62,002 nucleotides of DNA from an uncultured Nitrospiraceae bacterium. Its GTDB lineage: Bacteria > Nitrospirota > Thermodesulfovibrionia > UBA6902. Position 1 is the stretch's first letter, and each line of letters opens with the position of its first letter. The position numbers and the translations under genes were made by a program. Location of the stretch: contig CAYMUX010000004.1 of the NCBI GenBank assembly GCA_964393845.1, forward strand, positions 1 through 62,002. Direction: 5' to 3'. Below, in pieces: positions 33,553 to 49,464 of this stretch. Below the pieces are notes generated by a model. It saw nothing but the letters and a program-made list of their open reading frames with translations. It ran no database searches and had not been told where the DNA came from.

Positions 33553-34392
33553 TCATTGGGTGAAGGCGTATAGGATACATTTGCTTATAACAGGACAGCT
33601 TCCACACTCCTTTGGCGGGGAGGAAAGCCCCTCTCTTATTCCCCGTCTTTTTTCAGATGAAAATATGTCTTTAAAGGACATAAATCGGATGTTGCCCATG
33701 GAAACGGGCAGAATAGGGCATGGGGTTACATTAAAATTACGTGATATGTATATCATGGTCTTTGCTCCGTTGCAGCCCCCTTCGTTTGGATTATCTTTTA
33801 AATAAATCAACTGCCACATAAAAGGATCATGAATCGTCAACTTAAGGCAGTCAAGCGGGATTTTTCTTATTTCTTTACTAACCCGGGACGCAGTCTCCGG
33901 GTCAGGATAAAATATCCCCCCCTCATCAACCCTCTGAATCGGGAACTTAAGCTCATTAATACTATTATCAATACAAAAGGAAATGACGGCAGGAAGGTCC
34001 TTGAAATTCTTTTCATTTAAATAAAAAGATAACCCAAACGGTAAGCCCCGGGCAATCAAACGCGATATCTCCGCCAATGAAGACTGTAAGTCCTCAAGCA
34101 GCCCAAACTCTATATACAGTTTTGTCAATTCAGTATCTTTTATAGTATCCGGATTAAACTGATCCAGCGCTGTGTTTTTCACAGTTAAATTAATTTTAAT
34201 GCGCTCGCTTCTCAATCTTTTCAGAATCCTAATGGTTTCGTTACTTAATGGAGTGGAAATGTCCCTCAAGTTTAGAACGAAGATTTTGGCTTCGATCAGT
34301 TCATCACAAATTCGCATTGCGATATCGGCATCGCATGTAGATGGATTAATGTCCCAATAAATGATGAAGGGGTTTATTAAGTTATTGTTCAT
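33553..34392 (-). CDS. SPASM-domain protein lacking the radical SAM CxxxCxxC motif (pseudo-rSAM partner)
   Basis: 279 aa. The N-terminus IIYWDINPSTCDADIAMRIC has no CxxxCxxC. The C-terminus GGCNGAKTM...TPCP...ECGSCPVISKC is SPASM/twitch-like. Confidence 0.7.
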   Translation of the reverse strand: MNNNLINPFIIYWDINPSTCDADIAMRICDELIEAKIFVLNLRDISTPLSNETIRILKRLRSERIKINLTVKNTALDQFNPDTIKDTELTKLYIEFGLLEDLQSSLAEISRLIARGLPFGLSFYLNEKNFKDLPAVISFCIDNSINELKFPIQRVDEGGIFYPDPETASRVSKEIRKIPLDCLKLTIHDPFMWQLIYLKDNPNEGGCNGAKTMIYISRNFNVTPCPILPVSMGNIRFMSFKDIFSSEKRRGIREGLSSPPKECGSCPVISKCILYAFTQ

Positions 34393-34429
34393 AGTTAGTT
34401 AATATCAAATGGATTTTGGCATTTGACAT

Positions 34430-35440
34430 TTATTCCCTGCGCCAGCAGTGCGGGTCAGGGTTGTTCATGTCTCCAGTAAGGGCAAGCGCCCTTGCAGTAC
34501 AGCCGCCGAGGCAGTCATCGTAATGCCCACAGTCAGCGCATTTACCCGTTGGAGTTTTATTTCTCATTTTTTCCAGGACAGGTGAGCTTCTCCACAAATC
34601 TTTAAGAGCGTCTCTCAAAATATTGCCTATAACTATCGGAATAAATCCACAGGGGGTTATATCCCCGTTCGACTTAATATTCAAGGAAAGCTTCCCGCAG
34701 ATGCTCCCCTTAACGATTGAATCTTTATCGTTTTTCCCCAGCAGAGCTATTATCGGATCATCTAATGATATCTCCAGTCCTCTCGTCCTTTGTTTTGCTT
34801 CCATTGCGTTACGATAGAATGAACTCCACTCTTCACTGCTTAAATCCAGGCTGTCTTTATTTGAATAACCCAGCCCGGAGCATTTGAAATTATGGAAATT
34901 CAATTGCCTGACCTGGTTCCTGACGGCAAACTCGATAAGCTCATGAATATCATTATGGTTGATCCTGCAAATAACGGTCGATATGGAGGTTTCAAGCCCT
35001 GCTTCGTTCAGGAATAACAGGGCTTGAACAGCCCGTTCATGGCTGCTTTTGATCCCCCTGAAGTCATCATGGATTTCGGCAATGTGACTATCTATGCTTA
35101 TTCCTACTTTTGAAAAGCCGCGTCTTTTGAGTTCAATCGCCTTTTCCCTGTCGAGCAGGTACCCGTTGCTGTTCATGGAGACCCGCAGGCCCAGCCTTGA
35201 AGCGTACTCTGAAATATCTGTAAGGTCCTTTCTTAAAATGGGCTCACCGCCGCCGAAATTGATTGAGAGCACACCGGCGTCAGCAACATCTTTAATGCAT
35301 TTGGAAAGCGATTCAAGAGAAAGCTCATCCAAAGGATCGTTCCTGCTGTAGCAATGGCTGCACTTGAAGTTGCACCTGTTTGTGACCGCCCAATTGATTA
35401 TGAGAGGAGCGCCTGGGAGAAAGTCATTCATATTTGACAT
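34430..35440 (-). CDS. radical SAM/SPASM domain peptide-maturase-type enzyme
   Basis: 336 aa with VTNRCNFKCSHCY (CxxxCxxC), GGEP and C-terminal CADCGHYDDCLGGCTARA. Confidence 0.9.
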   Translation of the reverse strand: MSNMNDFLPGAPLIINWAVTNRCNFKCSHCYSRNDPLDELSLESLSKCIKDVADAGVLSINFGGGEPILRKDLTDISEYASRLGLRVSMNSNGYLLDREKAIELKRRGFSKVGISIDSHIAEIHDDFRGIKSSHERAVQALLFLNEAGLETSISTVICRINHNDIHELIEFAVRNQVRQLNFHNFKCSGLGYSNKDSLDLSSEEWSSFYRNAMEAKQRTRGLEISLDDPIIALLGKNDKDSIVKGSICGKLSLNIKSNGDITPCGFIPIVIGNILRDALKDLWRSSPVLEKMRNKTPTGKCADCGHYDDCLGGCTARALALTGDMNNPDPHCWRRE

Positions 35441-35732
35441 ATTCCTTGTCTTTCAGCTCGGCGATAAATGCCTCTGCATCACTCTTCAGAACTTCTGGCT
35501 CAACATCGAATATCCTGATAAGTTCGGAAACTATTTCGTCAATTGTCTTTCCGTCACAGCGCTTCCATATCTCTGTCCCCAGAATATTAAGTGACAGCAT
35601 TTCACCGCCTGAGTAAAGGATCGAGGTCCCTATTTCCTCAACATCTTCTCCCTTTTCAAGACCTTCATAAGCCTGCGCCTTGTACTCGTCTTCTTCACGC
35701 CACATAACATCAGGATTCCTGAATATTTTCAT
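35424..35732 (-). CDS. PqqD-family (RRE-type) peptide chaperone
   Basis: 102 aa. It has NPDVMWREED...LSLNILGTEIWKRCDGKTIDEIVSELIRIFDVEPEVLKSDAEAFIAELKDKEYV. It overlaps the rSAM gene by 17 nt. Confidence 0.8.
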   Translation of the reverse strand: MKIFRNPDVMWREEDEYKAQAYEGLEKGEDVEEIGTSILYSGGEMLSLNILGTEIWKRCDGKTIDEIVSELIRIFDVEPEVLKSDAEAFIAELKDKEYVKYE

Positions 35733-35748
35733 TTATCATTCCGCCTTA

Positions 35749-49326: not shown

Positions 49327-49334
49327 ATAATATT

Positions 49335-49384
49335 AATAAAGGAGGATATCCATTCAATAAATGAACAAGATATCCTCCTTTATT
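49335..49384 (-). terminator. 16-bp perfect hairpin after the 20-codon gene (copy A); attenuator/terminator-like
   Basis: aataaaggaggatatc pairs with gatatcctcctttatt around an 18-nt loop. The hairpin ends 8 nt before the ATG of 47242..49326. The flank is A/U-rich but has no clean U tract. Confidence 0.5.
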
Positions 49385-49401
49385 CGCACGACCACATGTA
49401 C

Positions 49402-49464
49402 TCAGCAAGGATGTACAACCGCTTGTCCGACAATCCTCGGAGGTACATATTTAATCTTCTTCAT
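49402..49464 (-). CDS. unannotated 20-aa peptide MKKIKYVPPRIVGQAVVHPC, copy A
   Basis: AAAGGAGGTG SD lies 6 nt before the ATG. A stop codon sits two codons upstream, so there is at most one extra Met. It ends at TGA and is a paralog of 46277..46339. Confidence 0.6.
   Translation of the reverse strand: MKKIKYVPPRIVGQAVVHPC

Follow-up and report, generated by a model that had tools for sequence, protein, structure and literature searches.

The window analysed here is a stretch of 62,002 nucleotides (contig CAYMUX010000004.1, GCA_964393845.1) from an uncultured Nitrospiraceae bacterium, to which all positions below refer. On its minus strand we found two genes of 20 codons, whose products end in Val-His-Pro-Cys (VHPC), and a three-gene cassette of the GeoRSP system, which encodes a PqqD-family protein, a radical S-adenosylmethionine (rSAM)/SPASM enzyme and a SPASM-only protein. 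We suggest, with a probability that we put at about 0.8, that the two VHPC peptides are the precursors, and so the substrates, of the GeoRSP system, and they would then form a new precursor family for a system that is known but orphan. The initial annotation, made from the sequence of the window, had proposed two HPC-ending peptides as the missing substrates of the rSAM/PqqD cassette. This idea is supported by the co-occurrence of peptide and cassette, by compact loci with the order PqqD, rSAM, peptide, and by an ATGA overlap between enzyme and peptide genes in one of them. Both peptides were confirmed with the predicted ends, as was their position in one co-directional array with the cassette, which lies 11-14 kb downstream of them with every intervening gene on the minus strand.

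The cassette (35732..33553, minus strand) was recognised as GeoRSP by NCBIfam, its three genes being adjacent, co-directional and in the canonical order. The PqqD and rSAM genes overlap by 17 nt, and a gap of 37 nt separates the rSAM gene from the SPASM-only gene. The PqqD protein reaches the cut-off of TIGR04302 (147.8 bits, cut-off 100) and the rSAM/SPASM protein that of TIGR04303 (576.3 bits, cut-off 400), with the CxxxCxxC and SPASM domains present. For the SPASM-only protein the score stays under the TIGR04304 cut-off (181.6 bits, cut-off 300), though this model is its best match. No second rSAM protein of the same genome reaches the GeoRSP cut-off, which leaves a single cassette above it. 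GeoRSP is a curated, uncharacterised system without known substrate: as catalogued it contains no peptide model, and our literature search returned no paper on the GeoRSP system or on a VHPC peptide.

Peptide gene 1 (49464..49405, minus strand) encodes the 20 amino acids (aa) MKKIKYVPPRIVGQAVVHPC and is closed by a TGA stop at 49404..49402; an in-frame ATG at 49467 provides an alternative start just upstream. Peptide gene 2 (46339..46280, minus strand) starts with GTG, also encodes 20 aa and ends with a TAA stop at 46279..46277. The two products are paralogues with 90% identity, differing in two residues, and a GGAGG-type ribosome-binding site precedes each gene. A hairpin of -30.6 kcal/mol (z = -6.28) lies 3' of peptide gene 1, and none of 200 shuffled sequences folded equally well; peptide gene 2 is followed by another stable hairpin, a GC stem with a U-tract. 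No Rfam family matches the peptide region. A genome-wide search found exactly two VHPC copies in the genome of the window.

Homologous peptides are not restricted to this genome. A single-sequence search revealed close copies, often several per genome, among 41 relatives, and a degenerate DNA pattern run against one genome per prokaryotic species matched at least 117 stretches, with an open reading frame (ORF) fitting the family in 79 of the 80 stretches listed. Altogether we recovered 159 distinct loci encoding 143 distinct peptides of 19-20 residues, from two phyla. The hosts are, on one side, metagenome-assembled genomes (MAGs) of Nitrospirota/Thermodesulfovibrionia, the phylum of the window itself, and on the other Geobacteraceae/Desulfuromonadaceae, including the cultured Pelotalea chapellei, Geobacter sp. 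AOG1 and Geobacter sp. OR-1; G. hydrogenophilus and Geomobilimonas luticola are further cultured carriers. In an alignment of 18 sequences, K3, Y6, P9, G13 and V17-H18-P19-C20 are invariant. Y6, P9 and V/I11 are present in every true member even when the regular expression used for the search demanded nothing more than HPC followed by a stop. Length and C-terminus show no variation worth note, with the stop directly after Cys20 in every member, and variant endings, selenocysteine included, were absent from the 1.55 Mb of fetched loci.

That the two ORFs are chance open frames can be dismissed. Routine gene callers miss ORFs as short as these, and protein catalogues do not include them: nine exact peptide sequences, RefSeq ones from Geobacterales among them, are absent from a collection of 15 billion proteins, and no Pfam or NCBIfam model matches the peptide even at E<=10. 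Against chance, the 159 loci of two phyla vary mostly at third codon positions (summed entropy of 12.05, 12.69 and 28.58 for positions 1, 2 and 3), 157 of them have a Shine-Dalgarno-like motif upstream, and the length and C-terminus do not change. Both ORFs are thus confirmed as real genes, and the VHPC peptides are a large unannotated gene family.

Some members of this family depart from the common type. A two-Cys subfamily ending in VCVHPC, with as many as four copies arrayed in 8 kb (L102, L105, L144, L153, L172, L175 and L178), comes from the Nitrospirae MAGs DBS2-1.bin159 and WY3.bin132. Other copies are on contigs binned to odd taxa, namely Acidithiobacillus (L107), Kiloniellaceae (L125), Polyangia (L143) and Deferrisomatales (L171) MAGs. 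The Polyangia copy has the usual PhnD-TPR-YedE neighbours, and some of the other three contigs may be mis-binned.

The phylogenetic profiling of peptide against GeoRSP rSAM, a check that the initial annotation had proposed, gave a nearly perfect co-occurrence in Nitrospirota and Geobacterales, with few exceptions. Among the 41 close relatives, 10 genomes contain both, 1 the rSAM only, 3 the peptide only and 27 neither (13 with peptide, 11 with rSAM). The corresponding numbers are 18, 1, 5 and 377 for 401 Nitrospirota genomes, and 47, 4, 2 and 98 for 151 Geobacterales genomes, where the system is patchy (rSAM in 51 of 151). All five cultured Geobacterales with the peptide have an rSAM above the TIGR04303 cut-off. 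The Fisher p-values of 8e-26 (Nitrospirota) and 8e-32 (Geobacterales) overstate the case, since related genomes are not independent; what gives the co-occurrence its weight is that two phyla, differing in gene order, show the same pattern. The rSAM-only genome of Nitrospirota (G272) is 86% complete in 510 contigs, and a new search of the rSAM-only genomes with the peptide profile returned no peptide. In another GeoRSP-positive genome without detectable peptide (G030, contig C51, loci L234 and L235), just the 3' half of the cluster (SPASM, rSAM, PqqD, cupin, ArsP) is kept, with an ArsP fusion gene broken into two pieces, so this looks like a decaying cluster.

Gene order brings the peptide still closer to the enzymes. 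In five genomes the peptide gene comes directly after the rSAM gene. One of these loci, from another family of the same class (L034), has the order major facilitator superfamily transporter, PqqD, rSAM, peptide, with the peptide gene closing the operon. The other four (L131, L134, L155 and L163) share the order PhnD-like, YedE, small beta-helix, PqqD, rSAM, peptide. In one of these, L155, the start codon of the peptide (ATG) and the rSAM stop (TGA) overlap as ATGA and the 3' end of the rSAM gene contains an AAGGAGG, an arrangement that represents translational coupling. No second conserved small ORF accompanies the GeoRSP cassette.

The long array of the window is also conserved. Its first half contains, in this order, peptide, beta-helix, CarboxypepD_reg, peptide, beta-helix, CarboxypepD_reg, OpuAC-like and ResB-like genes, and its second half PhnD-like, TPR (tetratricopeptide repeat), YedE, ArsP fusion, cupin, PqqD, rSAM and SPASM genes. 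The full 16-kb array recurs co-directionally in four further Nitrospirota families and, with small rearrangements, in Geobacter sp. AOG1, Geomobilimonas luticola and G. hydrogenophilus, and many Geobacterales have a peptide copy 5.7-11 kb upstream of the rSAM gene on the same strand. The initial annotation had taken the distance and an intervening toxin-antitoxin pair as arguments against a single operon. This objection does not hold, since the whole co-directional array is conserved in two phyla and no ParE/antitoxin pair occurs in any of the syntenic clusters examined, one of which is from a genome of the same genus (G002). The pair is a recent insertion specific to this genome, lies outside the GeoRSP system and gives no evidence against a functional unit.

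These arrangements also bear on another reading of the short ORFs, as regulatory leader or arrest peptides acting in cis, whose translation would control whether the hairpin or terminator is read through into the beta-helix genes downstream. Each short ORF in the window does have a strong hairpin or terminator behind it, placed just ahead of the gene that comes next, and arrest peptides can show conservation at the amino acid level. We consider this reading very unlikely, since the peptide is the last operon gene in compact loci and many copies close cytochrome operons, while a cis element would not be expected to be conserved across two phyla or to co-occur with a cassette as far as 450 kb away. 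A hairpin 3' of the precursor gene is, moreover, usual for peptides that are made on ribosomes and modified after translation (RiPPs).

The third line of evidence for a precursor role comes from the PqqD protein. Its AlphaFold model, built from 24 orthologues, has a confidence (pLDDT) of 95.7 and shows a winged helix with three strands, the fold of a stand-alone recognition domain. Its best structural matches are TbiB1 with the TbiA leader (template modelling (TM) scores of 0.74/0.85), PqqD and a leader-bound lasso B1 protein, with TM scores of 0.68-0.85 over these matches; a sequence search against solved structures gave spurious matches to designed repeat proteins only. Such a recognition domain implies a peptide substrate. 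In lasso leaders, positions -17 to -12 form a conserved YxxPxL motif (PMC10368454). The VHPC family has an invariant Y6-x-x-P9-x-(V/I)11, and because this YxxPx(V/I) motif resembles the one bound by PqqD-like domains we read residues from about 2 to 13 as a putative leader. The PqqD orthologues in turn share an invariant N-terminal RNPxxxWREE (residues 5-14), specific to GeoRSP PqqD proteins, and the basic leader may have its counterpart in this acidic patch. The loose likeness of the peptide N-terminus to the PqqA leader, noted in the initial annotation, has no profile support: Pfam, which should include the PqqA family, gave no match at E<=10. A PqqA-type leader was therefore rejected, and the YxxPx(V/I) description fits better.

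Several observations weigh against the peptides being GeoRSP substrates. One peptide-only genome of Nitrospirota (G017), 100% complete by markers in 270 contigs, has one peptide copy; GeoRSP PqqD, rSAM and the ArsP fusion gene were not found in it. Four further peptide-only genomes exist in this phylum (G061, G205, G287 and G293), 74-93% complete, and a repeated search of the peptide-only genomes for PqqD, a weaker rSAM and the ArsP fusion found none. In one Nitrospirota family the peptides are 270-450 kb from the cassette. Co-occurrence by itself cannot tell a substrate from a member of the same pathway, because gains and losses of the peptide go along with those of the enzymes and of the rest of the cluster. 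Outside its own family, the best scores of the rSAM protein are those with NirJ2 and AhbD, which are tetrapyrrole enzymes, and neither a protease nor a dedicated exporter was identified for the system. Finally, the SPASM-only gene of the window looks damaged. At its 3' end (window 33480-33600, minus strand) there is a diverged stretch of 57 nt with an in-frame TGA that truncates the C-terminus, and the protein lacks the last two conserved Cys residues (GGC...DPAC), which are kept in 7 of 7 aligned orthologues. The damage may be decay or an assembly error. Selenocysteine at this TGA was considered and rejected, as the 57 nt around it have diverged and the conserved Cys residues are missing. Compact GeoRSP systems exist entirely without a SPASM-only gene, and for this reason the protein is probably dispensable for the core reaction.

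Part of these observations could also be explained if the peptides, though encoded in one cluster with GeoRSP, were unmodified micro-proteins, for instance partners of the beta-helix, CarboxypepD_reg or multihaem cytochrome proteins, with GeoRSP acting on another peptide or on a tetrapyrrole. Most copies adjoin genes for secreted proteins and not for enzymes (an rSAM gene is the upstream neighbour in 5 of 159 loci), the best non-self profiles of the rSAM protein are those of NirJ2 and AhbD, and peptide-only genomes exist. We regard this explanation as improbable. The PqqD-type recognition domain points to a peptide substrate, no other conserved small ORF comes with the cassette, the peptide follows the rSAM gene directly in five compact loci, one of them translationally coupled, and the peptide has a leader-type YxxPx(V/I) motif. 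The link between enzyme and substrate rests on these compact loci, on the lack of a competing small ORF and on the recognition domain.

For the binding, chemistry, export and role of the VHPC peptides as GeoRSP precursors we infer the following course. The basic N-terminal part (residues from about 2 to 13, with K3, Y6, P9 and G13; YxxPx(V/I)xG) would serve as leader and dock as a strand on the PqqD-type protein, which would present the invariant V-H-P-C-COOH tail to the rSAM/SPASM enzyme. This enzyme would abstract a hydrogen atom and modify the tail, with the SPASM-only protein as a putative accessory. The product would be exported and act in the periplasm or at the cell surface, together with the NosD-like beta-helix and CarboxypepD_reg proteins, YedE and the multihaem cytochromes. 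As product we favour an intramolecular cross-link within His18-Pro19-Cys20 (expected shift of -2 Da); the second choice would be an MftC-like oxidative decarboxylation of the strictly C-terminal Cys20 (expected shift of -46 Da), and sequence alone cannot decide between the two. The stop directly after Cys20 in every member indicates that the free C-terminus or the HPC triplet matters. The closest solved structure to the rSAM protein is PqqE, with a full-length alignment; SuiB and SkfB come after it. In the profile comparison, the ranks behind the GeoRSP model go to NirJ2, AhbD and MftC, and these are oxidative decarboxylases or their relatives.

The genomic surroundings suggest where such a product could act. 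Signal peptides or lipoboxes were found on the beta-helix, CarboxypepD_reg and binding proteins of the cluster, and none was seen on the GeoRSP proteins and the cupin, which are apparently cytoplasmic. Since almost all other proteins of the conserved cluster are secreted or membrane-bound, the product is probably exported. The upstream neighbours of the 159 peptide loci include multihaem cytochromes (32), CarboxypepD_reg proteins (31), giant FN3-type proteins (11) and the rSAM gene (5); the remaining loci have other genes, no gene or a contig edge in this position. At the head of the array in the window there is a cytochrome fragment (57642..62000, minus strand) with at least 29 CxxCH and 6 Cx3-4CH motifs. 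In Geobacterales, peptide genes are often directly behind multihaem cytochrome genes.

The YedE gene of the window is the only copy in its genome above the TIGR04112 cut-off. In Geobacterales, YedE is above this cut-off in 49 of the 51 GeoRSP-positive genomes and in just four others, of which three have a distinct, higher-scoring type and one is a peptide-only genome (G496). YedE therefore behaves as a component of the system, which points to chalcogen or metal handling and not to antibiosis. Two selD genes with in-frame TGA elsewhere in the genome of the window (C42:10261-11175 and C109:1546-2460) indicate that the organism uses selenium. As a tentative suggestion, the matured VHPC peptide could be a new peptide-derived cofactor or carrier, for example with a His-Cys cross-linked or decarboxylated thiol tail, rather than an antibiotic-type product. 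It might be exported for chalcogen or metal handling with the NosD-like proteins, the YedE-type sulfur/selenium transporter and the giant multihaem cytochromes of metal-respiring Geobacterales and Nitrospirota. The association of YedE with GeoRSP and the extra peptide copies behind multihaem cytochrome genes support such a role.

Table 1. Features of the array in the window, ordered by position along the forward strand.
Feature	Position	Strand	Basis
GeoRSP SPASM-only protein, diverged C-terminus	33553..34392	-	TIGR04304, below cut-off
GeoRSP rSAM/SPASM enzyme	34430..35440	-	TIGR04303, structure comparison
GeoRSP PqqD-family peptide chaperone, RiPP recognition element (RRE) fold	35424..35732	-	TIGR04302, structure model
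Cupin, 108 aa	35749..36075	-	Domain annotation
ArsP-type permease fused to a C-terminal domain of unknown kind, 635 aa	36151..38058	-	Domains, synteny
YedE-family transporter	38073..39179	-	Profile (TIGR04112, 377 bits, cut-off 200)
TPR protein, 174 aa, conserved cluster member	39172..39696	-	Domains, synteny
ParE toxin, 104 aa, and upstream ORF of 65 aa, between the PhnD-like and TPR genes	39767..40266	-	Domains
PhnD-like periplasmic binding lipoprotein, 304 aa, also in compact loci	40309..41223	-	Domains
Membrane protein with ResB-like C-terminal segment, 306 aa	41344..42264	-	Domains, synteny
OpuAC-like binding-domain protein, 198 aa	42285..42881	-	Domains, synteny
CarboxypepD_reg-domain protein, 232 aa	42894..43592	-	Domains, synteny
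Secreted NosD-like right-handed beta-helix protein, 849 aa	43589..46138	-	Domains, syntenic
GC stem with U-tract after peptide gene 2, resembling an intrinsic terminator	46201..46246	-	Folding
Peptide gene 2 with stop, GTG start, VHPC end	46277..46339	-	Sequence reading, alignment
Secreted CarboxypepD_reg-domain protein, 287 aa, of a type among the commonest upstream neighbours of peptides	46377..47240	-	Domains, neighbour counts
Secreted CarboxypepD_reg and NosD-like beta-helix protein, 694 aa	47242..49326	-	Domains, syntenic
Long perfect hairpin after peptide gene 1, ending 8 nt before the next gene	49335..49384	-	Folding
Peptide gene 1 with stop, VHPC end	49402..49464	-	Sequence reading, alignment
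Secreted CarboxypepD_reg-domain protein, 194 aa, upstream of peptide gene 1	49550..50134	-	Domain annotation

If the assignment is true, a specific substrate of 20 residues makes the orphan GeoRSP enzymes testable. The VHPC peptide is unusually small for a precursor made of leader and core, and its never-varying C-terminal His-Pro-Cys suggests a chemistry so far undescribed for this enzyme class. As the clusters are conserved with giant multihaem cytochromes, NosD-like proteins and YedE, also in cultured relatives of Geobacter, the GeoRSP system may be an overlooked part of extracellular electron transfer or of selenium, sulfur or metal handling. More generally, genes of 20 codons overlooked by gene callers can be the key to orphan enzyme systems.

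Among known systems, the biosynthesis of pyrroloquinoline quinone (PqqA, PqqD and PqqE) has the same three-part logic, in which a PqqD-type chaperone and an rSAM/SPASM enzyme work on a tiny precursor. However, the enzymes of the window are below the equivalog cut-offs (142.2 against 381 for PqqE and 33.5 against 46 for PqqD), the VHPC tail differs from the Glu/Tyr pair of PqqA, and the VHPC precursor genes are multi-copy and scattered. Mycofactocin is made from a short precursor with chemistry at strictly C-terminal residues, by a PqqD-like chaperone and an rSAM/SPASM enzyme, and the product is a cofactor and no antibiotic (Haft 2011, PMC3023750). The GeoRSP set resembles MftA, MftB and MftC in having a short precursor, a chaperone of this family and an rSAM/SPASM enzyme. 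It differs in the score of the rSAM protein (157.9 bits, against an MftC cut-off of 265) and in the end of the peptide, His-Pro-Cys instead of the Val-Tyr of MftA, and no genes of MftD/E/F type are among the annotated cluster genes.

The likeness to lasso peptides lies in the leader-bound TbiB1 and lasso B1 proteins among the best matches of the PqqD model and in the invariant YxxPx(V/I) of the peptide. The PqqD protein of the window scores only 24.5 bits against the lasso-type PqqD cut-off of 80, and neither a lasso B2 protease nor a C cyclase appears in the Pfam and NCBIfam tables of the cluster genes, with no search aimed at them. Just 9 residues follow the YxxPx(V/I) motif, so any core would have at most 7 residues.

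The enzymes of triceptide cyclophanes, which are three-residue cross-links on aromatic-X-X motifs, and of sacti- and ranthipeptides are likewise rSAM/SPASM proteins working with recognition domains. The rSAM protein of the window has low scores with the maturase profiles of sactipeptides (StsB 130.7, AlbA 89.6). Compared with sacti- and ranthipeptides, whose Cys-rich cores have thioethers from Cys to an acceptor, most VHPC members have a single Cys and one subfamily has two, with no conserved acidic acceptor. The resemblance to triceptides is in the tail itself, as the invariant His-Pro-Cys is an aromatic-X-X triplet that, in the single-Cys members, holds the sole Cys of the peptide.

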